Sequence record: PZ242158.1
Reading direction: 5' to 3' (one strand)
Length of the DNA: 64,000 nt
Source: a phage
Under the pieces are notes generated by a model that was given only the letters and a program-made list of their open reading frames with translations, was not told the origin of the DNA and made no database searches. Numbering within the stretch: position 1 is the first letter of the stretch; each line of letters opens with the position of its first letter. A program made the translations under genes and the position numbers. Shown here in pieces: positions 3,723-20,764 of the stretch.

Positions 3723-3914
3723 ATGGTAATTTTTAACCGAGATGGTATCATAGTTAGACAGCACCCGTTCCTTGAATACTATCAAATTGAGCAATGGTGC
3801 TACGGGGATTGCAGTCACTCCTATGGGCAAAGTTGGGGATACCGTACAGTTTTTGAATCCACAGACCTTGACAAAGTAAGACAGAAAGTTTTAGAACTTA
3901 TTAACAACAAGTGA
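3723..3914 (+). CDS. hypothetical small protein
   Basis: ORF 63 aa. Confidence 0.4.
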   Translation: MVIFNRDGIIVRQHPFLEYYQIEQWCYGDCSHSYGQSWGYRTVFESTDLDKVRQKVLELINNK

Positions 3915-3921
3915 GTATGAT

Positions 3922-4257
3922 ATGGTAACATTGGAAAGACGTAAAGCTATCGCCGCCACACTGGCAGACATCTTTTGGGATTGCAATTTAAAAGATACCC
4001 GATATTGTGGCGCATCTGTAGATGCATTATTCCCACGGCCCACTATTGTTGCAATGGGAAACCTGTCAAACGTGGTGTATGGAGCATGGGACAAAGAAGG
4101 TGGATTTTATATCTGGCAACCTGACTACGGGACCTGGAAAGAGGTAAGGGGTGCGGATGACTTTGGGCCTGCAGTTGCCAAAACGATGGATGGCTGGCAA
4201 ATTTATGTTGGAAATGACATGAAGCTGAAAGGCGAGATTGTTTACTGGTTACCTTAA
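3922..4257 (+). CDS. hypothetical protein
   Basis: ORF 111 aa. Confidence 0.45.
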   Translation: MVTLERRKAIAATLADIFWDCNLKDTRYCGASVDALFPRPTIVAMGNLSNVVYGAWDKEGGFYIWQPDYGTWKEVRGADDFGPAVAKTMDGWQIYVGNDMKLKGEIVYWLP

Positions 4258-4277
4258 GAAAGTGCAGGAGATAAAGT

Positions 4278-4523
4278 ATGAACAAAGGGTGGACATTTGT
4301 AGACGGCGTTGAAAACATGCCTCTAGGAAAGTATATTGTAGCCATGGCAGATGAGAATGGTAAGGTAGATTTCGGAGCTTGCGAGATTGTTCTTGCAGGA
4401 TCTGGTGACCATGTGCACAAAACTGGGATAATTAACGGTCATTTCTACTTTGATTACAACCCTGTTGTGGCGTATATGGCTATGCCAGAATTCGAGTTCC
4501 CAAAGGAGGGTGCGGATGTTTAA
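4278..4523 (+). CDS. hypothetical protein
   Basis: ORF 81 aa with GGAG RBS. Confidence 0.45.
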   Translation: MNKGWTFVDGVENMPLGKYIVAMADENGKVDFGACEIVLAGSGDHVHKTGIINGHFYFDYNPVVAYMAMPEFEFPKEGADV

Positions 4524-6982: not shown

Positions 6983-7010
6983 TTGACACGCTGCAAAATT
7001 TAAGTAAACT
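6983..7010 (+). promoter_or_regulatory. sigma70-like promoter (TTGACA-16-TAAACT) followed by 5'UTR hairpin GGCGGGAATGTTTCCCGCC
   Basis: Promoter plus perfect stem-loop at about 7021-7039. Confidence 0.45.
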
Positions 7011-7058
7011 AGACACAAAAGGCGGGAATGTTTCCCGCCAACACAAAGGAAAAAGATC

Positions 7059-7463
7059 ATGAATAAGAACGTACGCCGCATCATGAATGAACTGGCAAAC
7101 GATGAAAAAATTATTGACATGCATTTGATCAACATTTGCCGCCGTTGTGTAACATATAACAACCGCGCCGCAAAAGCGCGTGAGATGAACGCAAAAGGCA
7201 CCTTAAAGCCATTCCAGGTGGTGGTAAAGGCCATTAAAGATGTAACTAATACGGCAAACCAGGTACAGGGGAGCACCAACGAGAGTACCAATATTGATCC
7301 GGCTTACATCATGAAACGGATCCGGACCTGCAAGAACAAAGAGCAAGTGTATAATGTCATAGACTGGTTGGATTCTATGGGCGATGTGGTGTACAATAGA
7401 TTCTCTGCAGCTATTGAGATCCAGCTTGACAGGTTAGACGGTAAAGTACTTAAAACTTACTAA
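7059..7463 (+). CDS. hypothetical protein
   Basis: ORF 134 aa with upstream promoter and hairpin. Confidence 0.5.
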   Translation: MNKNVRRIMNELANDEKIIDMHLINICRRCVTYNNRAAKAREMNAKGTLKPFQVVVKAIKDVTNTANQVQGSTNESTNIDPAYIMKRIRTCKNKEQVYNVIDWLDSMGDVVYNRFSAAIEIQLDRLDGKVLKTY

Positions 7464-7474
7464 ATTTATTTTTA

Positions 7475-7510
7475 GATGGCCTTGACTCCAGGGCCATCAA
7501 TAAAGTAAAT
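7475..7510 (+). promoter_or_regulatory. repeated terminator-hairpin/promoter module (GATGGCCTTGACTCCAGGGCCATC hairpin containing TTGACT -35, 17-bp spacer, GTAAAT -10)
   Basis: Near-identical 45-bp element recurs at 8096 and 11836. Confidence 0.45.
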
Positions 7511-7543
7511 TAATCTCAGCTAAGCGAAAAAGGGGGCTTTAAG

Positions 7544-7663
7544 ATGAGCACTACACGCCAATACACAAAGGTAACTATTATCGCCTGCGTTGTCGGTTAC
7601 ATCCTGGCGCAAATGTTAATGAGCAGCGCTAACAGTTTTGCAAAATTTTTCTTAAATTTTTAA
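7544..7663 (+). CDS. small hydrophobic peptide (39 aa)
   Basis: AAGGGGG RBS; hydrophobic core IIACVVGYILAQML; below ORF-track size cutoff. Confidence 0.3.
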   Translation: MSTTRQYTKVTIIACVVGYILAQMLMSSANSFAKFFLNF

Positions 7664-7691
7664 TTGACAAGCTAACTTAGATTGATATACT
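7664..7691 (+). promoter_or_regulatory. sigma70-like promoter (TTGACA-16-TATACT) with downstream hairpin GGGAAAACTTCCC
   Basis: Same architecture as promoter at 9527. Confidence 0.45.
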
Positions 7692-7742
7692 TAAACACGT
7701 AAACGGGAAAACTTCCCAGAGCACACAAAAGGAGAAAACACC

Positions 7743-8084
7743 ATGACTACTATGACCGCCGCAGAAAAAGCTATTCAGATCGCCGCACTGAAAAAACAGA
7801 TCGCAGACCTTGAGAACAAGATCGATAACTTTGAAATCGACGAGGACAAGTACGACGAAAACTATGATGAATGGTTAGACGAGATCTACGGCGAAATTAT
7901 GATCGGAAACATTTCTTTTCTTCCGTCGCGTATCCTCAAGGAGCTAGATCCTATCGCTTACCGCTGCGGATTTAGCGACTACATCGACAGCCTGGATATT
8001 GAGGACGATGAAGAATACCAGGAATTACAGACAGAGTTAGAAGAAGCAAAAGAAGAGCTTGCAGAACTGGAAGAAAACGAGTAA
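7743..8084 (+). CDS. hypothetical acidic coiled-coil protein
   Basis: ORF 113 aa, Glu/Asp-rich. Confidence 0.5.
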   Translation: MTTMTAAEKAIQIAALKKQIADLENKIDNFEIDEDKYDENYDEWLDEIYGEIMIGNISFLPSRILKELDPIAYRCGFSDYIDSLDIEDDEEYQELQTELEEAKEELAELEENE

Positions 8085-8095
8085 GATTATTTTTA

Positions 8096-8140
8096 GATGG
8101 CCTTGACTCCAGGGCCATCAATAAAGTAAACTTTATACTG
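8096..8140 (+). promoter_or_regulatory. second copy of terminator-hairpin/promoter module
   Basis: GATGGCCTTGACTCCAGGGCCATCAATAAAGTAAA repeated. Confidence 0.45.
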
Positions 8141-8173
8141 TTAACACTGAACTAATGCATAGGAGTTAAAACC

Positions 8174-8419
8174 ATGGCAGCACTAATCACCAAATATTAT
8201 GCCCCTACCAACACCAAAAGCGCCCGTATCATGGTAAAAGGCTTCGGACGTAAAAAGGTGTACACCTGGGATTATGCCTTAGACACGGAAGACAACTACA
8301 CCAACGCGATGACCGATTTTATTAATGATCTGAACACGCGGATCTTGACAAATTATAAAATTACCGATATTGCCTATATAGGGGAAGGCGGGATCTGTTT
8401 TGTCGGTATCGTCAAATAA
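8174..8419 (+). CDS. hypothetical protein
   Basis: ATAGGAGTTAAAACC-ATG start context (identical context at 12773). Confidence 0.5.
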   Translation: MAALITKYYAPTNTKSARIMVKGFGRKKVYTWDYALDTEDNYTNAMTDFINDLNTRILTNYKITDIAYIGEGGICFVGIVK

Positions 8420-8494
8420 GCTGTTTTTTCGGTGGTCCTGGTAGCAGGGCCATCTATAAAGATAGTTTATCAATACAATGAAAGGAGAAAGTAC

Positions 8495-8848
8495 ATGATC
8501 AGCGGGGCAAGTTTTATTATTGGCGCTATTGCTACGGCTTTAATTGTAAACAAGATCCAATCTAAAAACGAAAAAGATAGCAACGCCCTTACAGAATACC
8601 CGTTTTGGGTATTCAACGACAATGAAGACTATATTATCAAGTACAAGAATGAGAAGGGCGACCAGGTAACACCGCGACCGATCCCGGCTTACAAGATGCA
8701 AGAAACACTATACCGCCTAAAGGCTGGAGGCGCAAAAATCGTAGACTTTTGGGGATACGATCACACAGATCAGGAAGTTATAAAGCGCCGTATCCGGGCT
8801 ATTCAGGCCAATATTGAAGTTAGCAAGGGGGGAATATATGAAGATTAA
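8495..8848 (+). CDS. hypothetical protein with N-terminal transmembrane segment
   Basis: AAAGGAGAAAGTAC-ATG; hydrophobic N-terminus. Confidence 0.45.
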   Translation: MISGASFIIGAIATALIVNKIQSKNEKDSNALTEYPFWVFNDNEDYIIKYKNEKGDQVTPRPIPAYKMQETLYRLKAGGAKIVDFWGYDHTDQEVIKRRIRAIQANIEVSKGGIYED

Positions 8849-9035
8849 TTTTGAGAAGATTGTAAAGCGATCTCATGCTTCCGAAGAGCTGCCGGAACGC
8901 CGCCAGCGCAACAATAAACTGAATAAGCCAAAAAGATTTGGGAAGATCTGGCGAAATCATTATGATCGCAAATTACCGGGCCTGCTTTTGGAACGTGAAC
9001 GACAGGCGGAACGATACCGCCACAAAGGCAAATAA
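8838..9035 (+). CDS. hypothetical basic small protein
   Basis: Overlaps upstream stop; Arg/Lys-rich. Confidence 0.35.
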   Translation: MKINFEKIVKRSHASEELPERRQRNNKLNKPKRFGKIWRNHYDRKLPGLLLERERQAERYRHKGK

Positions 9036-9043
9036 CAACCAAC

Positions 9044-9070
9044 GCCCCGCCATTGTGCGGGGCTTTTTAT
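9044..9070 (+). terminator. rho-independent terminator (GCCCCGC-loop-GCGGGGC + T-tract)
   Basis: GC-rich hairpin followed by TTTTTATTT. Confidence 0.6.
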
Positions 9071-9276
9071 TTCTATCCTACGAATAGCGCCCCCGGTTGG
9101 CCCTGTAAGCGCCAAAAAGGCCCCACCTATGCAATCGCCCCCCTTTAACCTGAAAACATCGCTTAGGGCCGTTTTATGGCGTTAAAAATATCATTGACAG
9201 TGATTTTATTTAAAGCTTGACATCTTAAACAGGTTAGCTATACTAACCACATCAAAGAGAGAAAGGAGTAAACGCC

Positions 9277-9537
9277 ATGCGTAAATTAAAAAATTTTGAT
9301 AAAGTTGATGTTGTCCTGAATAATTTTTACTACTGCAACAACAAGGCCATTTGGTGGCGTGATAGTTCCACCGATAAAGTTAAAGCTCGCTTTCTCCAAG
9401 GGCACTGGCAAGGCCGTCCAGTGATTAAAATACTGGGGCAACTGGTAGCGTTTAAAAATTGCCGCCGTGTTGATGACGTTGAAGAGATCTTGAACATTTT
9501 ACGCCACAATAATTTAAAAAATAGTGTTGACAAGTAA
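9277..9537 (+). CDS. hypothetical protein
   Basis: ORF 86 aa. Confidence 0.5.
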   Translation: MRKLKNFDKVDVVLNNFYYCNNKAIWWRDSSTDKVKARFLQGHWQGRPVIKILGQLVAFKNCRRVDDVEEILNILRHNNLKNSVDK

Positions 9538-9554
9538 ATCTCGATAAGTATACT
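9527..9554 (+). promoter_or_regulatory. sigma70-like promoter (TTGACA-16-TATACT) plus 5'UTR hairpin GGCGGGAAAACTTCCCGCC
   Basis: Consensus elements; hairpin at about 9565-9583. Confidence 0.45.
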
Positions 9555-9611
9555 TAAACACACAGGCGGGAAAACTTCCCGCCACTAACAAAGAAAATAG
9601 GAGAAAATATC

Positions 9612-10235
9612 ATGACCACCGTTAACATTACCACAGGTTACAATTTATCTTTCGACGTGCTGACCGACGAACAAAAAGAAAAAGCTATTGAAATGGTCCG
9701 CGAAAGAGAAGAACACAGCGGGGATAATTTTTTTGCAGAAAGTGTAATTGAACACTATAAAGAATATGTCTTTCCAGAGTACGGCCTTGAAGATACCGAA
9801 GTACGTTGGTCCGGCTTTTGGTGTCAAGGCGATGGCGCGTCAATCAGTGCTGAAAACGTGGATTTAGAAAAATTCTTGCGTAAAGTAAAGGCCCTGACCA
9901 AGTTCCGATCAATTCGTCACTTGTTCGGCACAATGCACGATGGCGAGTTATCAGCCAGTGTTGAACGTATCCCGTTTAGCCATTATCATCACGAAAACAC
10001 AATAGGAGGGTGCATCGATACTAATTGGCTAGACCTGACCACCAAGCAAGAGGACAAAGTTGAAGAGCTGGAAGAGCTGATCACCGAGACGGTACGGGAG
10101 CTATCCCGCAAGGTTTACGTAGACCTGGAGGAGGCCTATCTTGAACAGTTTACTACCGAAAACCTGATCGGCCTTATTGAAGCCAATGATTGGCGGTTTG
10201 ATGTGGATGAATATGGGGAGATGAGTTTTTCATAA
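9612..10235 (+). CDS. hypothetical protein
   Basis: ORF 207 aa. Confidence 0.55.
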   Translation: MTTVNITTGYNLSFDVLTDEQKEKAIEMVREREEHSGDNFFAESVIEHYKEYVFPEYGLEDTEVRWSGFWCQGDGASISAENVDLEKFLRKVKALTKFRSIRHLFGTMHDGELSASVERIPFSHYHHENTIGGCIDTNWLDLTTKQEDKVEELEELITETVRELSRKVYVDLEEAYLEQFTTENLIGLIEANDWRFDVDEYGEMSFS

Positions 10236-10325
10236 ATAAAGTGTTGCAATAATCTAAAAACCTGCTATATTAAAAACTCAAGGGGCGAGATGACTTGCCC
10301 CCCACAAAACAAAGAGGAAAACATC

Positions 10326-10706
10326 ATGAAAAACACTACTAAAGCTATTGACACCGTTATGTTTAACCTGGTTACATTCCGTGAAGATATGAAAGATCTT
10401 CCACGTGAAACAGTGTGCGACCATATCGAAAACTATCGCAAACTAATCAAAGAGTTGCCTTTAAAACGTGACCAGTACGCGGCTAACGCTATGCTTAACG
10501 CCATGATCAAAAAGATGATCCAGTGTGATTTAACTCTGGCCTATGATTATGCAGGCGGTCGTTTTGCAGTATACAATCAGCCCGTGCCCGGTATGAGCAC
10601 CACCGAAGAATTGCACGCGTTAAATCTGAAACAAGATGTATGGGATAACATGCCCCGCGTGGTGGTGTGGGCAGAAAGCGGAAAGATTTACGGCGATAAT
10701 TTTTAA
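10326..10706 (+). CDS. hypothetical protein
   Basis: CAAAGAGGAAAACATC-ATG. Confidence 0.5.
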   Translation: MKNTTKAIDTVMFNLVTFREDMKDLPRETVCDHIENYRKLIKELPLKRDQYAANAMLNAMIKKMIQCDLTLAYDYAGGRFAVYNQPVPGMSTTEELHALNLKQDVWDNMPRVVVWAESGKIYGDNF

Positions 10707-10770
10707 TCAGGTAACAGGCGGCATATTTGCCGCCTTATTGTTAAACAGAACTGCAAAAGAGGTACATAGA

Positions 10771-11142
10771 ATGGAATTTATTATTTTGGCTGTAGTAGTT
10801 GCCTTGTTCAACGCCTGGATCGCTGGCAAGATGGGTAGATCCGCTTTTTTATGGTTTATTATATCTATTTTCCTGGGGGTGGTTGCAACTATTGTACTTG
10901 TTATCCTTGCAATTGTTGACAAGGGGAATAATAGAAAGGGTAAAGTATTTTCAGACCTGTACGACGCTCAAACATTTGTCAACGCCTACTACAGCGATCT
11001 TCCAGTCTCCCTACGTTGCAGCCTTGCACAACAGGTTTTCGATGAAGCTAAAACCAGAGATCACGCCCATGAGATTTGTTTAACTGAGGCGGATCGCCTA
11101 TTTGAGAGGAATAGAAAATATGTGGACCAGCCGTTTAAATAA
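10771..11142 (+). CDS. hypothetical membrane protein (two predicted TM helices)
   Basis: Hydrophobic N-terminal half. Confidence 0.45.
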   Translation: MEFIILAVVVALFNAWIAGKMGRSAFLWFIISIFLGVVATIVLVILAIVDKGNNRKGKVFSDLYDAQTFVNAYYSDLPVSLRCSLAQQVFDEAKTRDHAHEICLTEADRLFERNRKYVDQPFK

Positions 11143-11361
11143 TGCCACGTTAATTAACCCCTTTAGTGAAGATTTGAAGCCAGCCGCCTGGCGGGATGGA
11201 TTCAATAACGAAAGCTTTATTTTCAGGCCTGATCTTAAGGAATTTTATAACAATGGATCGAACAACGACAGAGATAATTTTTCTTGTAATGTGCGTGGTG
11301 ATAATACTCCTGGGAGCCATTGCAAACCACGTCACTGCTAACAGGAGGAAAGGGGGAGACG

Positions 11362-11481
11362 ATGACACCCAAGGATAAGCCCCGCACCGATAAGGCGCGC
11401 CGTGTTATGGTATGGCTTGAGATCATCGCCCTTGAAATATTGTTAGGCGTAGGGATGTATTTTATCGCTGTAAGTAATTGA
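11362..11481 (+). CDS. small hydrophobic peptide (39 aa)
   Basis: AGGAGGAAAGGGGGAG RBS; C-terminal TM-like segment; followed by terminator-like hairpin. Confidence 0.3.
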   Translation: MTPKDKPRTDKARRVMVWLEIIALEILLGVGMYFIAVSN

Positions 11482-11622
11482 TAACGGCCCCGATCCCTGG
11501 GGCCTAACTTTTCAAATTTTTTTTCTCCCTGAGTGTTGCAATCCGATCCAGAATATGGATAATAACAATCAACGGGGAGACACTCCCCACCGCATAGACA
11601 AAGTTCCAAAAGGAGAAACAAA

Positions 11623-11823
11623 ATGAGCAACAATATCCGCGTTATTAACTTCAAAAAAGAAGAAAAAATTGCCGTGCTGATTGACGGTCAAGAAATCTTT
11701 AAAGGTGATTATGAAGATCATCAAACGGCGATTAGTATCACTCGCGTGATTGGTTACCATAATTTTTACCCTCAAGGCGCTGAGGCAGCAGTAAAACTAA
11801 TTAAAGAGATTGTAGGCCTGTAA
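11623..11823 (+). CDS. hypothetical small protein
   Basis: AAAAGGAGAAACAAA-ATG. Confidence 0.5.
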   Translation: MSNNIRVINFKKEEKIAVLIDGQEIFKGDYEDHQTAISITRVIGYHNFYPQGAEAAVKLIKEIVGL

Positions 11824-11835
11824 AATTTATTTTTA

Positions 11836-11872
11836 GATGGCCTTGACTCCAGGGCCATCAATAAAGTAAATT
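11836..11872 (+). promoter_or_regulatory. third copy of terminator-hairpin/promoter module
   Basis: GATGGCCTTGACTCCAGGGCCATCAATAAAGTAAAT. Confidence 0.45.
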
Positions 11873-11914
11873 TAAACCCTGTTAAAATAATCAGTGCAAA
11901 AAGGAGTAATGATC

Positions 11915-12214
11915 ATGTTTATCCAGGCTAATAATCTTTATTTCTTTGATGGTCAGATCGTAGACGGCGTGGAGGTGGAAATCACCGGGTGCCCTGGCGG
12001 TCAGGTTATGACTTTTCGGAATAATGCCTTTGATGATTCTCATATCGTTATGAGAATGGAAGTTAGTAAGCTGGATGACAAGAAAACACTCATTGATTAT
12101 TCCGTGAAAGATCATCCAGACTACCACATGATCTATGGTGATTTGTGCATTGTTGACCGTGACAAGGTGGGCGGCATTGTGATCGCTATTGTGAACGATG
12201 TTTTCTCAAACTAA
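11915..12214 (+). CDS. hypothetical protein
   Basis: AAAAGGAGTAATGATC-ATG. Confidence 0.5.
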   Translation: MFIQANNLYFFDGQIVDGVEVEITGCPGGQVMTFRNNAFDDSHIVMRMEVSKLDDKKTLIDYSVKDHPDYHMIYGDLCIVDRDKVGGIVIAIVNDVFSN

Positions 12215-12231
12215 TTTCAGCAGGTGATTTT

Positions 12232-12582
12232 ATGAAAGTAAAACTATATTACCTTAATGAGCTTAACCCCCTTGCCCAGGTCCGCGCCCTGGCTAATACC
12301 TTGATTTGTGAGAAATCTGTATATTGTGTTGAGCTTAACTCCATGCGTGAACGTCTCAAAGGTGGTTACTTTGACATCCATGCTGCAATCAACGGCCTGA
12401 ATATGGAATTTATCCGCTTACGTAACAGCCGCCAGAATCTGGCAAGAATGGAACAAGATCCGGCCCACCTTCGTAAGCTGGTTATTGAAAATCATCTAAT
12501 GTTTAATGCCGATGGTGATTATTACCATTTTCACCGTAAACGCTGGTACCGTAGCGGCAATATAGGAAAGAATGCAAAATAA
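12232..12582 (+). CDS. hypothetical protein
   Basis: ORF 116 aa followed by two hairpins (12586-12651). Confidence 0.5.
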   Translation: MKVKLYYLNELNPLAQVRALANTLICEKSVYCVELNSMRERLKGGYFDIHAAINGLNMEFIRLRNSRQNLARMEQDPAHLRKLVIENHLMFNADGDYYHFHRKRWYRSGNIGKNAK

Positions 12583-12788
12583 GGCCCCTGGCAGGGCCTG
12601 CAGCGATATAATCACATAAAGGCTATGCGGTTGCATAGCCTTTATTATTTTGGCGTTACAGCGGCCCCCAAGGCGCTTAAAAAATTTTTAAAGAAGTACT
12701 TGCATCAAGTCCTACAATATGGATAATAAAGGGTGTCGGGGGGCGGTGAGGCCTCCAATCATTAACCGGATAGATAGGAGTTAAAACC

Positions 12789-13073
12789 ATGGCTATTGTT
12801 ACCGTTGGCGATGTAGTAGAAATGGAAGCCAAATACTTAAAAGCTGGTATGCATATCATACGGAATGATCAAGAATTGTTATTAACCATGGTTGAATATA
12901 ATCCCGGTCAGGATTATCCAAGCATTGACTACTTTTTCCAGTATGTTGATGAAGAATTAAAAGAGGATGAGGCTTATCAGGGTGAATTTTGTAATTTCTT
13001 TTGCCCTGATGAGGTTGTAAAAGTTATCTATCAACCTGGCGTACCTTTCCCGCTGCACGCTATCAACAAATAA
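12789..13073 (+). CDS. hypothetical acidic protein
   Basis: ATAGGAGTTAAAACC-ATG. Confidence 0.5.
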   Translation: MAIVTVGDVVEMEAKYLKAGMHIIRNDQELLLTMVEYNPGQDYPSIDYFFQYVDEELKEDEAYQGEFCNFFCPDEVVKVIYQPGVPFPLHAINK

Positions 13074-13128
13074 ACCTGGCGGGGCCGAAAAGGCCCCCAA
13101 TTATGAAAATAAAGAGAGGCAAATCATC

Positions 13129-13362
13129 ATGATGGAACAAATTAAACGCGCCGAGGCTATTAATGGCAACGTGATCTATTTTGTCAGCAAAAACGAAAAA
13201 GGCGTACCCTATGCGGCGGTAATAGTACAGCCTGACGGCGATTATTGGTGTACTGTGTACGGCGCTTATTCTTTTGGGCGTCCAGTGCATGATAAAATTT
13301 TGAAAGTAGCGAACCCTACCGGGAAAAATATCACAGCAGAAAAATTTTTTGAAAATAGTTGA
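13129..13362 (+). CDS. hypothetical small protein
   Basis: AAAGAGAGGCAAATCATC-ATG. Confidence 0.5.
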   Translation: MMEQIKRAEAINGNVIYFVSKNEKGVPYAAVIVQPDGDYWCTVYGAYSFGRPVHDKILKVANPTGKNITAEKFFENS

Positions 13363-13433
13363 CATGACCATATAAGACTGTAGTATATAAATCAAAGGGG
13401 CAAGCCCCACCAACCACAAAGAGGATAAAAATC

Positions 13434-13613
13434 ATGGCTATTATTGCAAAGACTGAGATCGTAGGCTTGGATTCTATTCTCCTCGCATATGAGGAAGCTA
13501 TAGAAATGTATGTGGTTTCCTATGGTGAGTATATCCGTGAATATAAATCTATTGATCTGGCTTTTGAATGTTATATTCGCCAGGTTAATAAAGCGTACGA
13601 TGATTATCGTTAA
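13434..13613 (+). CDS. hypothetical small protein (59 aa)
   Basis: TTGACA-16-TAGTAT promoter and CAAAGAGGATAAAAATC-ATG. Confidence 0.4.
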   Translation: MAIIAKTEIVGLDSILLAYEEAIEMYVVSYGEYIREYKSIDLAFECYIRQVNKAYDDYR

Positions 13614-13703
13614 AATAGTTTGAAAACAAACAACCATCTTACAAAGCATAATACATAAGGCGGTGGAATGGTCCGCCACCTGGAACAAGAAGAGGAAAAC
13701 AAA

Positions 13704-13808
13704 ATGAAACAGAAATTAATTGATGCGGTGATCCTGGTTATTGCCCTGGGTATTGGCCTGATTGCAACCATGGCTAATGTGATCTTGTCTTCCAACGGTA
13801 TCGGGTGA
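13704..13808 (+). CDS. small hydrophobic peptide (34 aa)
   Basis: AAGAGGAAAACAAA-ATG; single TM-like segment. Confidence 0.3.
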   Translation: MKQKLIDAVILVIALGIGLIATMANVILSSNGIG

Positions 13809-13817
13809 GGTTGGCAA

Positions 13818-14033
13818 ATGATCACTAACAAAACAGGCAAAACGGAATTTTTACGCAACTTACAGATCGGCAAGCCTGAGATCTGGTATTGCACTAAAAC
13901 ACCACGTGACGAAATGAAAGACTTCACCGCCACGCTGCAACGGGTAAAGATATCCATCACGCAGAAAAAGGCCTTGATAGTGGTGGAAGGTGAGATCCCT
14001 CAAACCGTTGTTATAGTTGAGCGTACAGCATAG
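13818..14033 (+). CDS. hypothetical small protein
   Basis: ORF 71 aa. Confidence 0.45.
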   Translation: MITNKTGKTEFLRNLQIGKPEIWYCTKTPRDEMKDFTATLQRVKISITQKKALIVVEGEIPQTVVIVERTA

Positions 14034-14124
14034 TTTAATTTATACCGATACCCGAAAATTAACCAACAAAGCATAAACAGGCGGTTACCGCCGCCTTAAA
14101 CGTAGCAGAAAGAGGATAGACACA

Positions 14125-14409
14125 ATGAAAAAGATGATCGCAGTGGTTGCCCTGGTTGTTGGACTTAATGCGCCTGTAATGGCTAAAGAGCTGGCAAAAG
14201 AGGTTGATCTAACGGATATCCATGCCGTCAATCAAATCGGGGTTACTTATCGCTTATGCCTTGCCGCTAAAACTTTTAATGACGGCACAACAGAGTACTA
14301 CGGATTCGAGGGTATCCGGTGCGGTGAGCTTGCTCGCGACCTTAAGGAAGATCCAGACCTGGAAGATCTGCCCATCACCGTAAACGGTAAAGCTTACGTA
14401 AACCGTTAA
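14125..14409 (+). CDS. hypothetical secreted protein (N-terminal signal peptide)
   Basis: MKKMIAVVALVVGLNAPVMA signal-like N-terminus. Confidence 0.5.
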   Translation: MKKMIAVVALVVGLNAPVMAKELAKEVDLTDIHAVNQIGVTYRLCLAAKTFNDGTTEYYGFEGIRCGELARDLKEDPDLEDLPITVNGKAYVNR

Positions 14410-14411
14410 CC

Positions 14412-14546
14412 ATGAGAAAGATAATCATCACCTTGGGGATTGTGGCGGGATCGCTGGCGCTCTTTCTCCTTATGGTTAGGTATGTGCTGATCGGTATTGT
14501 CCTGGTAGTCAGTGATCTATTGGAAACGGTTGGCACCTTGTTTTAA
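14412..14546 (+). CDS. small hydrophobic peptide (44 aa)
   Basis: Two hydrophobic stretches; immediately follows upstream stop. Confidence 0.3.
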   Translation: MRKIIITLGIVAGSLALFLLMVRYVLIGIVLVVSDLLETVGTLF

Positions 14547-14558
14547 AGAGCGGTAAAA

Positions 14559-14750
14559 ATGAATATCGAACAAGTTAGAAAGGTATTGGCGGTACTGCGT
14601 TATCATAATCATAGAAAGGTCATAGACGATCCTGATTATGTCGATTCAAGCCTGGAAGGGGATACACTACAAGCCATAAGTAATATGCAAGAATTGCTAA
14701 AGCGCATGACAGAGAAAAACCGACCGGACTACATAGGCGAAAAAATATAA
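14559..14750 (+). CDS. hypothetical small protein
   Basis: ORF 63 aa; terminator-like hairpin downstream. Confidence 0.45.
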   Translation: MNIEQVRKVLAVLRYHNHRKVIDDPDYVDSSLEGDTLQAISNMQELLKRMTEKNRPDYIGEKI

Positions 14751-14963
14751 TCCTTATAAACTACAAAACAGGGCTTGCAATGGTCCTGTTTTTTTGTTAT
14801 ACTTGTTTCACGGCAGGCACCTGGCGACGGGGGGAGACAATCACCGGGTGTGCCTGCTATATAAAAACTATAAAAACCGTTGACATCTGCCAGGTGCTGG
14901 GGTAGCATTTATCTCGAAGGGGGCAAAAGCGCCCACACAACAACCGGAAGAGAGGAAAACGCC

Positions 14964-15236
14964 ATGTTAAGCTGGATTAACCAAGAAGTTGAATCACGTT
15001 TTAATGCTATTTGGGATCTCATCGAAAAAGAAGACGGCACATCAAGCCCCTACCTCAACAATTTGGAATTCCATTTTGTGGAAGCGATGAACGCAGAACA
15101 TGATCACGAAGGTGGCGCGGATGAGTTCGCTAAAGGTTATGGCTTTAACAATGCCAACGAAATGATCGAGGCGGTAGTACTCCAGGCTGAGGAAGATTAT
15201 CAATTAAAAACGCTTGAATTCTGCCGCCGCAAGTAA
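14964..15236 (+). CDS. hypothetical acidic protein
   Basis: GAAGAGAGGAAAACGCC-ATG. Confidence 0.45.
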   Translation: MLSWINQEVESRFNAIWDLIEKEDGTSSPYLNNLEFHFVEAMNAEHDHEGGADEFAKGYGFNNANEMIEAVVLQAEEDYQLKTLEFCRRK

Positions 15237-15298
15237 TAAGATAATGACACGGGCCAAAAGGCCCACTAAACAAAAACCACATAAAGAGGAAAAACATC

Positions 15299-15562
15299 AT
15301 GAAACGCCTTGATCAGCTCAAATTAGTTCAATATATGGCTTATCGTGTTCTTGAAGTCCAGAAAGGTAGCAAAAAAGAGGTTTGCGAGAAAGCTTATAAG
15401 ATCTTCACTCGCAAAAAAGATGACTGGATGCTACGCCAGACCAAAAAGGCTGACATCTTGGGGTACCTGGAAGAAGAGATCCGACTTGAAGAGCAAGAAG
15501 AGATCCGCCGTAGTGAGGCAGATTATCAGGCAGCTTGGGAAAACTGGATGAGCAACAAATAA
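15299..15562 (+). CDS. hypothetical protein
   Basis: AAAGAGGAAAAACATC-ATG. Confidence 0.5.
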   Translation: MKRLDQLKLVQYMAYRVLEVQKGSKKEVCEKAYKIFTRKKDDWMLRQTKKADILGYLEEEIRLEEQEEIRRSEADYQAAWENWMSNK

Positions 15563-15705
15563 TACAACAAGGTGCACGGTCAGGGGCTTAAAGCCCCTTG
15601 ATCACATAAAAATTATGCTATCCCTGGTTGACAGGGATCGGCAGTTTTGCTATATTCTTTTTTGAAGGGAAGTTGTAAGAAAATTAACTAAGAGGTAAAA
15701 ACACC

Positions 15706-16125
15706 ATGAACATTAAATCTAATAATCCGGCATATAGCTTTGATAACGCTTTTTGTCACGGTCCGGCGGCGAAAGGATTCGAAATCGATGGTAAACTAAT
15801 TATTGTCAATGTTGACGGGGAAGAGGTTGCAGTATATCCGGTGGCAGACGTAAAAAGCCGTTTACAATGCCGCATGGATGTTACCGCCTATCAGCTTGAT
15901 CCGGTCCGCATAGTTGCCCTGGTCCTGGAAGAAGAAATTAAAGCCATGCACCATAGCAACAGGTTTATTGGTGACGCTCAGGATAATATGAAGGTGTGCC
16001 GCCATAAAGTTAATGAAGTGCTTAAAGAGTACGGCTATAAAGATCTTATGATCAAACGTGATGAAAAATTCCGGTACCGTAACGACCTGGCAAATCGGAT
16101 TTTTGAAATATACGAATCATTATAA
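15706..16125 (+). CDS. hypothetical protein
   Basis: CTAAGAGGTAAAAACACC-ATG; last plus-strand gene before gene-free zone. Confidence 0.5.
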   Translation: MNIKSNNPAYSFDNAFCHGPAAKGFEIDGKLIIVNVDGEEVAVYPVADVKSRLQCRMDVTAYQLDPVRIVALVLEEEIKAMHHSNRFIGDAQDNMKVCRHKVNEVLKEYGYKDLMIKRDEKFRYRNDLANRIFEIYESL

Positions 16126-16785
16126 TTTTTTAACTGAATTATCAAGGGGCTTAGGTCCCTTTCTTTTTGTCTGCTCTTCCTCCCTACCATAAACGGCCCT
16201 ACCTGGCAAGTGGAATAATTGACGAGCCATCAATCCCACACACTGTACAAATATACATGTAAAATAACTATTGCATAACCTTTCATTGTGTGGTAGCGGT
16301 GCTATTTTTACCCGTTTTCCTTCCAAAATTGCACGTAATGCAGCTATTGCACAAAATTTAACCTGATGCGCATCTTCAATATCTTGTCAACAACTAAAAA
16401 TCTTTATAAGTCATACACTTACACAAACCAAAAAGCGTGTTCTACGTGAAAAATCGAGTATAACTATAGCCGACAGATCTCAGAATTTACGTACGCTCAC
16501 CATTCTATAGCCTGCTAAGTATTTATTCCGACCATAGAATAACAGAATAGTCAATACCTGCATAAAATAATTATTCGTTTAAATTGCATAACATAAATCA
16601 GCTCAGGTGTCAACATTTTTCGTAAACAGTCTGAAATTGTCACGGCAAGTTATCATAATCAGAGAAATCTTTAGTCGTCTAATGTTTACTGTACGTTACT
16701 ATACTAACTGGAATCATTAGATGACTAATAGAAAGATAAGAAATAATTAACAATACAATTATTTTATCTGTAACAATAAGGCAAC

Positions 16786-16950
16786 TATGCAAACGAATGG
16801 CATGGCGCGACGGAGTCGCGACATAATATAAAAGCAGTAACCATCACCCCCGTGATAGTTTGTCTGCAATCTATTAATCAGATCATAGTTGCCTTGTATT
16901 TAGTTAATCATGACATAACAAGCAAGGCAACTATAGATCTTCTAATAGTT
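16786..16950. repeat. iteron-like inverted repeats (AAGGCAACTAT / ATAGTTGCCTTG) with palindrome GCGACGGAGTCGC
   Basis: GGCAACTAT occurs twice direct and twice inverted within about 160 bp; ATGCAAACGAATGGCATGGC also repeated at 16797 and 17059. Confidence 0.5.
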
Positions 16951-17191
16951 GCCCTGCTTTTATATTATGTCATATATTATTAACTTGTTAATTGTTAGTC
17001 AGTCAAATCAACAGCGTTATCATTTCAGTCTTTATTGTTGTTGATCGTTATTGTTATCATGCAAACGAATGGCATGGCTTATCATCTCTGTATAAACAGT
17101 TTATGCGTGAACAGTGAGGCATGCAATAGTAACAATTGTTATTGTGTCATCATGTCAAGGGTAAAGTGTCATAGTATGTCAGACATGTTTT

Positions 17192-17625
17192 TCCCCTCTT
17201 TGTCAAGTGCTGCATGAAAAAATTTACAAGCTGGTATGGTAGCATTTTTGCGGCCTTGTTTACATTCAGGAGTGTATGTATAATCCTTGTTGTGTGGGCG
17301 TTTATACGTCTGGACGGTCAGAAGTCTGCAGGTTAATATCTAATCTATTGGCTGCTAACTATATCCCACACAAATGATAAGAAATATAATTGTTATATGC
17401 GTAAACTGTAACTCATGTTATCAATCCCTGTATGTATCGCCAGTGGTGCGCATAATGGGTATTATGTTAAATTGCCCGTAATGATAACAGTTCTCACAAT
17501 GATAGGTATTCTCATTCATCCACACAAAATAGGTTGCAAATGTTGTGCCACTGTGTGAACGGCCTGGCCTATTAATTTCTCTCACTGCCTCGATATTTGA
17601 GAATTGTTATAAGAATGAGAAGTAT
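17192..17625. repeat. 434-bp direct repeat, copy 1
   Basis: Identical to 17752-18185 by visual comparison. Confidence 0.85.
17256..17284 (+). promoter_or_regulatory. sigma70-like promoter inside repeat copy 1 (TTGTTT-17-TATAAT)
   Basis: Perfect -10 hexamer with 17-bp spacer; no ORF downstream. Confidence 0.4.
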
Positions 17626-17751
17626 CCATGTTTATATTACATCTACTTGGTTCAGAACCAAAATGCGCGAAAGCGTTTCACGATAACTAGCGACCACGGT
17701 CTGTTCCCTGGCGGCCATACGGCTTCTACTGAACGCAGCAGAGGGCGATAA

Positions 17752-18185
17752 TCCCCTCTTTGTCAAGTGCTGCATGAAAAAATTTACAAGCTGGTATGGT
17801 AGCATTTTTGCGGCCTTGTTTACATTCAGGAGTGTATGTATAATCCTTGTTGTGTGGGCGTTTATACGTCTGGACGGTCAGAAGTCTGCAGGTTAATATC
17901 TAATCTATTGGCTGCTAACTATATCCCACACAAATGATAAGAAATATAATTGTTATATGCGTAAACTGTAACTCATGTTATCAATCCCTGTATGTATCGC
18001 CAGTGGTGCGCATAATGGGTATTATGTTAAATTGCCCGTAATGATAACAGTTCTCACAATGATAGGTATTCTCATTCATCCACACAAAATAGGTTGCAAA
18101 TGTTGTGCCACTGTGTGAACGGCCTGGCCTATTAATTTCTCTCACTGCCTCGATATTTGAGAATTGTTATAAGAATGAGAAGTAT
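17752..18185. repeat. 434-bp direct repeat, copy 2
   Basis: Identical to copy 1; 126-bp unique spacer between copies. Confidence 0.85.
17816..17844 (+). promoter_or_regulatory. sigma70-like promoter inside repeat copy 2 (TTGTTT-17-TATAAT)
   Basis: Same as copy 1. Confidence 0.4.
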
Positions 18186-19213
18186 TCCCATTCCGTCCGC
18201 CTGGCAGCGCTCCTGTAGGTCCTGCAAGGACTCTAGCTTTCAGCTAGACCCTTCGGGCCTCCCTACAGGTCAGGTCAAAATCGTGGTAGAATTGGGCCTA
18301 TTCAGATATTTCTGGCTGACTCTTCAGGTCTGTGTGGGAAAAGCCAACCTCTCCGGCGGGGCAGGGGGAGGTCAATTAAAAAATTTACGTGGTGTATGAA
18401 GCGCTCTTCAGGTAAGGCAGGTATTATGGGATGAAACCCTCTTCAGGCAATGATATTTGTGGGTGTGATATTTGCTGGAAAGCCAGATATGACGGGACTC
18501 CCGGCGGGGCAGGGGTAGTACAGACAGGGAAAATATGAGAATGTAGTTGGGGAAATTGATCAGACAGGTAGAGTATGGAATATGTTACAAGTATGTTAAA
18601 TATGGAGGTTGAATATCTGTAGGATTTGTGTGTAAAATCAAAGACTTAAGGGGTGTTGTGATATTTTCTATAAATAATTCAAGTTTAATAGGTGATATTT
18701 GTCTCTATCCGCTTTGTGTGGTAAACAGATTCAGATGAGATTGGTTTACAAGTGTATACATAATATACAAATTAAAGATACAAGAAACCCCCCATCCCCC
18801 TTCGGCTACCATTCACCTTTTCCTCTGACTGGTACTTAAACACTTATTCAGACTCTTCAGGTTATCACCCATATATCATATGGCAGTGACTGGTGTCCTC
18901 CGGCCCCTCTTTCGTCACCCGTCCGCTTCGCCATGCTAATGCCATAGCCAATGGTTCGGTTGTTCACCCTGTTCACTCAGGTGTATCTCCATACCCCTTC
19001 AAACCGAAGAGAACAGAAAACCCGAATTACTCGGTAAAAGAAAAGAGAAGAACTTAATTTTATCAGGATAGGCAAGAATGTCAAGGCATGACTGCTCACT
19101 AAACAAGCAAACAGTCATGTGTGGGAGGTAAGTGATTGTGGTGGTGGGAAATTTAGTTGAAAGATGTGTTATAGGTGCGCTTCCAGCACTTTAGCCGGGC
19201 AGCTAATTGTGTG

Positions 19214-19429
19214 TCAGTCCAGTGGTTCATCACCTACTTCACTGAAATCAATGTTCATGGTCTCCTCCCAACCATCAATCTCAGCACCAGAGTAGAGATC
19301 TTTAGGACTTACTCCCAAAGCATCAGCAACAGAGTCCATATTTAACACCTCTGGCAGGTATGATTCATCGAATTCAAGGTAAATCAGGCCACGAGTGTTG
19401 TCAGCTCCACCAAATATTTCTATCTTCAT
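19214..19429 (-). CDS. hypothetical small acidic protein
   Basis: ORF 71 aa, acidic C-terminus; last gene of minus-strand block. Confidence 0.45.
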   Translation of the reverse strand: MKIEIFGGADNTRGLIYLEFDESYLPEVLNMDSVADALGVSPKDLYSGAEIDGWEETMNIDFSEVGDEPLD

Positions 19430-19550
19430 GAAATCTCCTCTGGAAATGAGAGTGTGAACAGGGTTTTATACGTTCCGATGCACAGGAATTATGCACGTTT
19501 GCCTCTTCAGGCCATGCTTTAGCATGAGGAACCTGTGTGGGCTCGGTGCT

Positions 19551-19763
19551 TCATAGTCTACCACCCCTGAACTCTTCGTGCTCAGGCATAATAGAGAACC
19601 AGATATCTACGATGTCTTCCCACGTTAGGTCATCAGCCTCAGGATCTACCTGGAGCGAAGATGGAGAATCTTCAGAATCTAAGTTTTCCTCTTTCACTGG
19701 CTCAGCCAAGGGACATATAGTCACTCCTTTGGATGTCTCTTCAGATGCATGTGTGTTTATCAT
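19551..19763 (-). CDS. hypothetical small acidic protein
   Basis: ORF 70 aa; overlapping plus-strand ORF judged less likely. Confidence 0.3.
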   Translation of the reverse strand: MINTHASEETSKGVTICPLAEPVKEENLDSEDSPSSLQVDPEADDLTWEDIVDIWFSIMPEHEEFRGGRL

Positions 19764-20123
19764 GTTCCACCCGTGAGTATTCCGGCAACAGCCGCTATGG
19801 ACGTAATGATCATCAGGATCACCACTAAAACTTCGGACAATGTTCTCATTGTGTACTCCATATTCTACAAACTATGTGTGGATACTATCACTGGATCGGT
19901 AATGTGTCAACAGAAACGCCGCGAGGGTTTGGTTAAAATCCGAGCGTATGGTGATTTGGGTCAAAACGGACGTGCGTTCTCGCTACGCTCGAAATATGGA
20001 GTTGTTTGTAGGGAGCTCTTAAACGCTCTGTAATGAGATTAACTGCCCAAGGTATGCAATCGTGCACCAGATAAAGAAAAGGACGCCACAGAGCGTCCTA
20101 GGTGTCTTAAATTTGATATTTTG

Positions 20124-20435
20124 CTATACCCACGAGGGCTTATCAAGGTTGGAGTAGCTGAAAGGTGTCAAAAGGTGACTGTCAAAATCTCTCAAACTAT
20201 CCAAATCTTTTTCCTCGTCCTGACACCATCTGTGCCTACATTTGTTGTTGTAGTGCATGGAATGCATAGCGTTCTGCAACTTAACAGGCACAAGTGATTC
20301 AGGAGTAGATAGTATTGTTGGGTATGCCAGAACCACCTCAAACAGTGGAAACACATCGAAACTAAAGTCTACCTCTGCAGAGGTTGATGGCATGTAGGAG
20401 TATTTAGCCGCCTTTGTAGACATAATCCACCTCAC
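20124..20435 (-). CDS. hypothetical protein
   Basis: ORF 103 aa. Confidence 0.45.
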   Translation of the reverse strand: MRWIMSTKAAKYSYMPSTSAEVDFSFDVFPLFEVVLAYPTILSTPESLVPVKLQNAMHSMHYNNKCRHRWCQDEEKDLDSLRDFDSHLLTPFSYSNLDKPSWV

Positions 20436-20764
20436 ACAGGTTTGATAATACCTTCACCGAATAGCTCTTCGTATCTAATCTTGTCCGGATCCCACTCCTG
20501 GAGAATTTCGAAGACAATATCCAACCCAGGAACAATCACTTCTCCAGTGTCAAGCTTAGCAAGAACAAAACCGGAAGGTTGAATGGTTTCCCAGTTACGG
20601 CGATCAGAATAAAATACTTCGAAAATATCACCAACCTCAATCCGTTTCTGTTGCTCAAGATGCTCAAGGTTCTCTTTCATACGGATGCAGCGTATTTTTC
20701 GTGCAGGCCATAGACCACCTGCATCACGTTCATTCAATTCTTTTACAGTGATCGGTATACCCAT
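20432..20764 (-). CDS. hypothetical protein
   Basis: ORF 110 aa; stop/start overlap with next gene. Confidence 0.5.
   Translation of the reverse strand: MGIPITVKELNERDAGGLWPARKIRCIRMKENLEHLEQQKRIEVGDIFEVFYSDRRNWETIQPSGFVLAKLDTGEVIVPGLDIVFEILQEWDPDKIRYEELFGEGIIKPV

Follow-up and report, generated by a model that had tools for sequence, protein, structure and literature searches.

The phage sequence PZ242158.1, a stretch of 64,000 nucleotides (nt) that was analyzed as a whole and is called the window here, carries between positions 7544 and 19849 five very short open reading frames (ORFs), p1-p5, which encode hydrophobic peptides of 29-44 amino acids (aa). All five were found where an original prediction, made from the sequence alone, had placed them. 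On the taxonomy of its matches, the window belongs to an rV5-like Escherichia coli myophage of the genus Vequintavirus (Vequintavirinae); its region 7000-20500 matches 239 phage records, the top match being Escherichia phage rV5_ev156 (98.9% identity over 99% of the query). We conclude with high confidence that p1, p2, p3 and p5 are genes, and with good but lower confidence that p4 is a gene as well; a further candidate, p6, is probably a sixth. The peptide-coding features are the following, with the Shine-Dalgarno (SD) sequence of each where it was recognized.

7544-7663, plus strand: p1, a 39-aa peptide (MSTTRQYTKVTIIACVVGYILAQMLMSSANSFAKFFLNF), equal to rV5 ORF193 and phrog_16391; SD GGGGG
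11253-11378, plus strand: p6, a candidate 41-aa peptide (MDRTTTEIIFLVMCVVIILLGAIANHVTANRRKGGDDDTQG), predicted transmembrane, absent from the original prediction and flagged by a blind scan
11362-11481, plus strand: p2, a 39-aa peptide (MTPKDKPRTDKARRVMVWLEIIALEILLGVGMYFIAVSN), equal to rV5 ORF181 and phrog_13629; SD GGAGG...GGGGGAG
13704-13808, plus strand: p3, a 34-aa peptide (MKQKLIDAVILVIALGIGLIATMANVILSSNGIG), the core of rV5 ORF173 and equal to phrog_14631; SD GAGGA
14412-14546, plus strand: p4, a 44-aa peptide (MRKIIITLGIVAGSLALFLLMVRYVLIGIVLVVSDLLETVGTLF), equal to rV5 ORF170 and phrog_16005; no SD
19760-19849, minus strand: p5, a 29-aa peptide (MRTLSEVLVVILMIITSIAAVAGILTGGT), equal to phrog_34195 and Murica gp147; SD GGAG

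Each of the five ORFs contains a single strongly hydrophobic stretch (best 19-residue Kyte-Doolittle mean 1.9-2.95), in agreement with the one transmembrane-like segment that had been predicted, and the best 19-mer sums on the Hessa 2005 scale ranged from -3.6 to +2.1 kcal/mol. TMHMM and Phobius previously assigned one transmembrane domain (TMD) to four of the peptides (PMC3606486 Table S3). The good ribosome-binding sites claimed for all of the ORFs were confirmed at 7544, 11362, 13704 and 19849, where an SD sequence stands at normal spacing; the claim failed at 14412. Hydrophobicity alone is unconvincing because 14 hydrophobic ORFs were observed when no further criterion was applied, several of them in a non-coding stretch. 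A blind scan of 7000-20500 for ATG-initiated ORFs of 25-60 aa that combine a hydrophobic 17-mer with an SD-like motif returned five ORFs, four of those originally predicted and 11253-11378, against a mean of 0.4 (standard deviation 0.5, maximum 2) in 100 dinucleotide-preserving shuffles. The five ORFs exceed what chance produces.

Conservation in relatives, which had been named as a check, was found for all five ORFs, which are kept as conserved genes across rV5-like phages. The window was compared with 41 fetched loci, about 30 of them rV5-like and two from Phapecoctavirus. Scans of IMG/VR and of metagenomes yielded eight loci (two rV5-like) and five loci (all five rV5-like), respectively, and GenBank phage records provided the main comparative power; tblastn searches with the peptides covered 50,697 phage records. 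Length, start, stop and SD were unchanged in 14-16 of the 16-17 loci matching each peptide, the exceptions being the most diverged contig, L004, and phage V18. The pooled ratio of nonsynonymous to synonymous polymorphism (pN/pS) was 0.16 for p1, 0.17 for p2, 0.41 for p3, 0.54 for p4 and 0.11 for p5, and for every peptide its own frame gave the lowest value among the scoreable reading frames; accepted neighboring genes gave 0.04-0.34. The hydrophobic ORFs that served as controls, taken from the non-coding stretch (16679-16792, 16852-16983 and 17214-17336), had a pN/pS of about 1.0 and no third-position bias. All five peptides also matched PHROG profiles over their full length, with E values of 4e-21 to 7e-32. 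These observations establish the ORFs, their context, their conservation and the purifying selection on the peptide sequences; intact ORFs together with purifying selection were found strongly for p1, p2 and p5, strongly at the protein level for p3 and moderately for p4.

The strongest cases are p5, p1 and p2. The 29-aa p5 is the most constrained of the peptides, with tree-based changes by codon position of 0/3/14 (p=7e-5), and it aligned over at least 80% of its length in 114 of 114 records and at 29 of 29 PHROG positions. For p1, the start, stop and SD are intact in every rV5-like locus matched, the peptide is full length in 113/113 phage records and matches 39/39 PHROG positions, and parsimony changes by codon position amount to 10/2/26 (p=8e-6). 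In p2, a basic N-terminal tail with six Lys or Arg residues precedes a near-invariant helix that contains two Glu, and two residues follow the helix; this peptide is full length in 119/119 records, matches its PHROG at 39/39 positions and shows tree-based changes of 15/6/21 (p=0.017).

The evidence for p3 is of a different kind, as this gene occurs in two allele groups with a nucleotide identity of just 61-65%. In both groups the ORF has exactly 34 codons, and its product retains the C-terminal motif ATMANMILSSxGIG along with the hydrophobic helix. In random-substitution trials the ORF survived in about 4-5% of cases, and an ORF of equal hydrophobicity in at most 0.1% (P<=0.001). Several records, including rV5 with its ORF173, annotate p3 as 46 aa starting at 13668; other alleles lack the additional 12 residues or have a stop within them. 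Likewise, some records give p5 a 33-aa form starting at 19861, in which the four extra residues vary (MEYT, MGYT, MECT or MERT) and which lacks an SD. The shorter starts fit better for both genes because the N-terminal extensions are not conserved and the PHROG profiles are exactly 34 residues (34/34 matched by p3) and 29 residues long. The p5 gene is missing from the rV5 reference annotation because an over-extended ORF, ORF162, overlaps it in another frame; this 101-aa ORF (12529-12834, minus strand, in locus L011) appears to be the acidic 70-aa gene that follows p5, annotated from too early a start.

The five peptides are already known. The original prediction held that a 60-aa cutoff had caused them to be missed, which is true only of the ORF list on which it was based, as all five are in GenBank and in PHROGs. 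Public protein collections contain all five exact sequences under NCBI accessions, and every peptide belongs to a separate PHROG whose function is unknown. Four have been published: Kropinski et al. (2013, PMC3606486 Table S3) describe rV5 ORFs 193, 181, 173 and 170 (p1-p4) each as "membrane protein, 1 TMD". The remaining peptide, p5, is annotated in Murica (29 aa), in BASEL phages and in MiataMamis. Annotation is uneven; p1 and p4 are left without a feature in about half of the annotated records sampled, and some records place antisense ORFs over p3 and p5 instead (FFH2 ORF155 and ORF147; rV5_ev156). We considered these antisense candidates and rejected them. The ORFs 13610-13960 (minus), 11235-11654 (minus), 14375-14536 (minus) and 19749-20033 (plus) all oppose the local gene polarity, and the pN/pS of the antisense frame exceeds that of the peptide frame at p2 (0.41 versus 0.17), p3 (0.66 versus 0.41) and p4 (0.67 versus 0.54). 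No matched locus has the ORF across p2 (11235-11654) intact; the ORF across p5 (19749-20033) is disrupted in 3 of 17 loci and lacks a third-position bias. The annotated alternatives carry no coding signature, and the antisense ORFs across p2, p3 and p5 are probably spurious annotations.

The blind scan added p6, which lies in the +1 frame of an annotated gene (11120-11341, the homologue of rV5 ORF182) and overlaps the start of p2 by 17 nt. The p6 frame and the annotated frame are both open in all loci examined, and p6 aligns at full length in 118 of 119 Vequintavirus records. We compared the two frames by tree-based counts on 26 unique sequences, using a tree built from the same short region, and obtained the following values.

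Annotated frame, 11120-11251: 21 of 52 changes synonymous, 0.18 expected, p=1.6e-4; changes by codon position 13/16/23
Annotated frame, 11252-11338: 10 of 60 changes synonymous, 0.20 expected, p=0.78; changes by codon position 29/18/13
+1 frame (p6), 11253-11336: 27 of 56 changes synonymous, 0.25 expected, p=1.5e-4; changes by codon position 14/13/29
+1 frame 5' of the p6 ATG: 2 of 23 changes synonymous, 0.23 expected, p=0.98; changes by codon position 6/13/4

The coding signature is thus carried by the annotated frame up to 11251 and is lost from it thereafter, whereas the +1 frame has none 5' of the p6 ATG and carries it from 11253 onward. The stretch is short, and a third frame also shows a weak synonymous excess (p=0.02). 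The ATG of p6 is invariant in the 29 loci of the frame analysis (29/29), and an SD-like AAGGAA or GAGGAA lies 11 nt 5' of it. Gene finders have called homologues of p6 only twice; a collection of 15 billion proteins does not contain the peptide in its exact sequence, and p6 is annotated in none of the GenBank records inspected, of which Mangalyan and SYGMH1 leave the whole stretch blank. We conclude that p6 is probably a sixth true protein-coding gene. A programmed +1 frameshift at the TTTT run immediately ahead of 11253 could fuse the annotated gene to p6. Independent initiation is preferred over this less likely fusion, given the invariant p6 ATG with its preceding SD-like motif and given that UAU, the codon in the A site, is not slow. 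The operon at 10290-11481 may end in an overprinted p6, with selection switching to the +1 frame at about 11252, and rV5-like phages would then carry at least six early membrane microproteins, which may constitute a lineage-specific toolkit for the E. coli envelope; we advance this combined proposal tentatively, and somewhat short of even confidence. If it is true, three membrane proteins are packed at the end of this operon, and p4 with its exported 94-aa partner (described below) would exemplify the toolkit as an exclusion device common to two phage subfamilies.

The peptide genes are embedded in the small-gene part of the genome, in which plus-strand genes extend to about 16.1 kb and minus-strand genes begin at about 19.2 kb, forming convergent units. 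In the rV5 study (PMC3606486), this region is described as "88 mainly small ORFs"; promoters of the sigma-70 type are reported all along it, together with a gap that is non-coding. The original prediction had spoken of phage early regions, and the layout supports it, as small-gene operons behind consensus sigma-70 promoters are of the early type. The regulatory features and partner genes next to the peptides are listed here.

7482-7511, plus strand: weak promoter-like site 5' of p1, TTGACT-18-TAAATT, a consensus match only (9/12)
7664-7691, plus strand: strong sigma-70 promoter, TTGACA-16-TATACT with TG, right after the p1 stop; P192 in rV5
11486-11504, plus strand: intrinsic terminator hairpin right after p2, at the operon end; annotated as a terminator in Murica and EdH4
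13359-13386, plus strand: sigma-70 promoter-like site heading the p3/p4 operon, TTGACA-16-TAGTAT (10/12)
14125-14409, plus strand: gene encoding an exported protein of 94 aa that has the signal peptide MKKMIAVVALVVGLNAPVMA and a pair of conserved Cys, phrog_9845; 5' partner of p4
14765-14792, plus strand: terminator hairpin closing the p3/p4 operon
19551-19763, minus strand: gene of an acidic 70-aa protein 3' of p5, phrog_16356, start-stop coupled to p5
19882-19910, minus strand: sigma-70 promoter-like site directly 5' of p5, TTGACA-17-TAGTAT with TG

The weak site at 7482-7511 and the strong promoter at 7664-7691 flank p1. The last cistron of its operon is p2, and a membrane protein of 123 aa (10771-11142) is encoded in the same operon. 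Between the promoter at 13359-13386 and the terminator at 14765-14792, p3 and p4 form internal cistrons, and p5 is the first cistron after the promoter at 19910-19882. Such an arrangement raises the question of whether some of these ORFs, mainly p4 and p5, are coupling or leader cistrons, or conserved open spacers, of which the product is irrelevant. The p4 ORF, which lacks an SD, starts 2 nt after a stop and has a weak codon-position bias, the p5 stop overlaps the next start (ATGA), and p3 ends 9 nt ahead of the next ATG. Yet the sequence of p5 is more constrained than that of any other peptide (pN/pS 0.11, with no first-position change); p4 keeps 15 residues, its hydrophobic profile and its exact length across two subfamilies, with an indel that is in frame; and a mere coupling ORF would have no need of a conserved hydrophobic helix. 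A purely coupling role is thus improbable because the peptide sequences themselves are constrained, that of p5 most of all.

The operon structure also bears on lysis timing. The original prediction had named holins and antiholins among the possible functions, and pinholins may be added to these. The peptides are small membrane proteins, the rV5 holin is not established, gp129 being a proposal only (PMC3606486), and a neighboring protein, the 123-aa product mentioned above, was labeled "putative holin" by the BASEL annotators. Against such a role, the rV5 lysin is gp89 and the proposed holin gp129, whereas the peptides correspond to ORFs 170-193 and about 162. The proposed gp129 has 78 aa and two TMDs (PMC3606486). 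No lysis-category PHROG was matched by the peptides. Known holins typically have at least about 60 aa and a charged C-terminus, while in p1, p2, p3 and p5 only 0-11 residues, hardly a soluble C-terminal domain, follow the helix (the C-flank was also scored as 2-11 residues, 0-1 of them basic), and the C-flank of p4 consists of 22 mostly hydrophobic residues with one basic residue; among the candidates, p6 alone has a charged C-terminal tail. Size, position and promoter type make a lysis role unlikely, and with peptides of 29-44 aa in sigma-70-type operons far from gp89 and gp129, holin or antiholin is the least probable of the listed functions and, in our judgment, a very improbable one. As to the 123-aa protein itself, its gene belongs to a sigma-70-type operon far from the lysin, and searches with it matched no holin family and returned only weak membrane-domain matches, including PycTM (E=0.011); the "putative holin" label looks unsupported.

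The p4 gene merits separate consideration because of its partner. Coupling or re-initiation is the likely route of its translation, as an SD is missing and the ATG comes 2 nt past the upstream stop. The upstream gene encodes the 94-aa protein with a typical Sec signal peptide, and the partner-p4 pair is kept in Phapecoctavirus, a genus of a different subfamily (phAPEC8 gp249/gp248 and ESCO13 gp137/gp136). In tblastn searches p4 was found in 162 phage records of Vequintavirus and Phapecoctavirus, near full length in 160 of them and mostly at 60-80% identity, and it matched its PHROG at 44/44 positions. Over about 20% DNA divergence, 15 residues are invariant and the sole indel is in frame; under random substitution, the fraction of trials in which p4 stayed intact and equally hydrophobic was 0.007-0.05 for the alleles that had diverged most and 0.05-0.44 for less distant alleles. 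AF2 modeled p4 as one 42-residue helix rather than a hairpin (pLDDT 93), which says little beyond helicity. A word-index homology search with p4 returned only proteins of rV5-like phages. Two family assignments were rejected. UniRef names one allele DUF3096, and none of 12 alleles matched this family at E<=10; weak sub-threshold matches of p4 alleles to DUF7396 (best E=0.004) and LPAM_1 were seen, but no allele has a cysteine, so there is no lipobox Cys for a lipoprotein.

Several observations concern the surroundings of this pair. It occupies 14125-14546 in the window, 9382-9803 in locus L016 and 3877-4298 in locus L022. Between Vequintavirus and Phapecoctavirus, the DNA of the block 13753-16100 shows about 82% identity, which suggests from the alignment that a module including the p4 pair may have been exchanged between the two genera. 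In phage V18 (locus L025, about 8001-8190), a deletion has produced an in-frame fusion of p4 with the C-terminal portion of the 63-aa product encoded downstream; the V18 alleles also differ at p3, with a stop in the upstream extension, and at p2, with a changed C-terminus.

The constant association of p4 with the exported protein suggests a further explanation, namely that the peptides are subunits of phage-built membrane assemblies formed with neighboring phage proteins, for instance with p4 as an anchor for the 94-aa protein or with other peptides as partners of the 123-aa protein; host proteins would then not be their direct targets. In its support, p4 always stands beside the 94-aa gene, also in Phapecoctavirus, p6 and p2 share one operon with the 123-aa membrane protein, and p5 is coupled to the acidic 70-aa protein. 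This proposal overlaps with the interpretation that we favor below, since such a complex could itself be an exclusion or takeover device; as a separate explanation we regard it as unlikely, behind the toxin hypothesis considered later.

We favor, with moderate confidence, the interpretation that the five ORFs, and probably p6, are true genes for one-helix inner-membrane peptides, expressed from sigma-70 operons, that serve as accessory binders of inner-membrane proteins. In this scheme, the host RNA polymerase would transcribe the peptide genes from consensus sigma-70 promoters as parts of short small-gene operons. The peptides would then insert in N-in orientation into the inner membrane; this topology is predicted because basic residues are commoner in the N-flanks than in the C-flanks. 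Once inserted, they may bind, helix to helix, inner-membrane proteins that belong either to the host or to an incoming phage. Specific helix-helix contacts are suggested by the near-invariant helix of p2, which contrasts with its variable tail, and by the fixed C-terminal motifs of p3 and p4. Such binding would serve host takeover or superinfection exclusion, not lysis, and the peptides would act as lineage-specific accessory factors. The peptide genes were found only in E. coli phages of two genera, and none occurred in the Salmonella relatives present in the tblastn lists; this restricted distribution would fit accessory, host-specific functions.

A number of results weigh against this interpretation. 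The tree-based codon-position signal of p3 is not significant because few changes occurred within each allele group. For p4, the codon-position signal is weak (18/13/23, p=0.25) and the pN/pS is 0.54, the ATG follows the upstream stop without an SD (TAA-CC-ATG), and a HMMER profile searched against 1.84 billion representatives found only three clusters, all of 44 aa, and thus no bacterial or distant relative; a search with the fold of its 94-aa partner was uninformative. Searches of the five peptides and four neighboring proteins against Pfam, NCBIfam and PADLOC gave nothing above noise, and the PHROG matches are all of unknown function and include no characterized homologue, so that the target and the biological role are a matter of pure inference. 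Early timing is predicted for these genes from promoter sequence. In the rV5 proteome, mass spectrometry is marked in Table S3 for structural proteins only (e.g. the major head protein) and for none of these ORFs (PMC3606486). We found no literature on Vequintavirus transcriptomics or ribosome profiling, or on functional work with the peptides.

The original prediction also named toxins and inhibitors of host membrane proteins, and either function is possible. The peptides might instead be membrane-damaging toxins similar to those of type I systems, which would oligomerize in the inner membrane, dissipate the proton-motive force and shut off the host early in infection. With 29-44 aa, one hydrophobic helix and a basic N-terminus, they broadly resemble the toxins of type I systems (TisB, Hok, Ldr and Ibs), they are set in operons of the early type, and the two Glu within the p2 helix would suit the polar lining of a pore if this peptide were oligomeric. 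Moreover, toxicity to the host is frequent among the early products of phages (PMC13250531). However, no Hok/Gef, Ldr, TisB, Ibs, ShoB or other type I family was matched at E<=1 in Pfam-A or NCBIfam, and with regard to an antisense RNA antitoxin, the Rfam scan of 7000-20500 matched no family. By our own reasoning, early depolarization would harm a phage that needs the energy metabolism of its host for about 1 h, and five or six depolarizing peptides would be redundant; the invariant, specific motifs suggest specific partners rather than generic membrane damage. We therefore regard toxicity of this type as unlikely, although it ranks second: early takeover or exclusion through the binding of inner-membrane proteins is the most likely role, and lysis and pure coupling are unlikely.

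Outside the peptide genes, several features of the window were noted. A gene-free stretch of about 3 kb (about 16150-19150) separates the convergent units and corresponds to the rV5 "non-coding" segment 104013-106618. It contains several small hydrophobic ORFs with neutral substitution patterns (pN/pS about 1), and in A51.2 a 273-nt ORF in the corresponding gap carries the label "putative membrane protein". A strong minus-strand promoter-like site (19084-19057, TTGACA-16-TAAAAT, with TG) is directed into the gap, and an Rfam scan of 7000-20500 matched no family. Within the gap, 17192-17625 and 17752-18185 form an exact direct duplication of 434 bp (560 bp from start to start), which is single-copy in all 23 related loci covering the region (87-97% identity); it is either a recent event specific to this genome or an assembly artefact. 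Twenty-four "Campylobacter phage" records (MG0656xx, host C. jejuni) are 93-95% identical to this region of an E. coli phage and are probably E. coli rV5-like phages carried in preparations, or mislabeled records. On the plus strand, 62085-62897 holds a tRNA cluster (Arg, Tyr, Ser, Thr, Met and Pro), in which ARAGORN assigns a four-base anticodon (atcc) to a tRNA-like element at 62554-62652.

The finding of five hydrophobic ORFs in itself changes little, as it restates an existing annotation of hypothetical one-helix membrane proteins. More useful are its by-products: corrected starts for p3 and p5, the recognition of antisense annotations as probably spurious, and the likely overprinted gene p6. 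Because vequintaviruses are used in therapy and biocontrol and belong to the BASEL collection, the six early membrane microproteins represent a tractable list of targets.

Among known systems, the closest are the same genes in rV5 and Murica. The peptides are 82-100% identical to the products of rV5 ORFs 193, 181, 173 and 170 and to Murica gp147, which occupy the same genomic positions; nothing here is different in kind, and the window carries one allele of each. The chromosomally encoded peptides AcrZ, MgrB, KdpF and PmrR and the type I toxins TisB, Hok, Ldr and Ibs, which act by helix-helix contacts or membrane damage, are of the same size class and likewise have a single transmembrane helix. 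Unlike them, the peptides described here are restricted to two phage genera, and no hidden Markov model of these families in Pfam or NCBIfam was matched at E<=1.

A phage-encoded precedent is PfsE, the smallest protein of Pf4, which resides in the inner membrane with its N-terminus inside, binds PilC and blocks superinfection (PMC8764522). Like the peptides described here, it is a very small phage-encoded membrane peptide with a single helix, and its binding of PilC offers by analogy the mechanism that we infer for them. It differs in that there is no sequence relationship and in that Pf4 is a temperate filamentous phage of Pseudomonas; moreover, type IV pili are not known to be used for rV5 infection of E. 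coli K-12 hosts. A second precedent is Imm of T4, a 9.3-kDa membrane protein for superinfection exclusion that binds the incoming tape-measure protein (bioRxiv 10.64898/2026.03.06.709160). Imm, which blocks incoming genomes, resembles the peptides as a small early membrane protein of a virulent E. coli myophage, but it is about twice as large and has several helices, and no homology was detected; PHROG and Pfam searches likewise gave no similarity to the superinfection-exclusion proteins T4 Imm and Sp, HK97 gp15 or P22 SieA. In T4, Sp is the periplasmic companion of Imm. The 94-aa exported protein encoded next to p4 may, by analogy, recall this exclusion pair of T4, in which one component acts in the membrane and the other in the periplasm.

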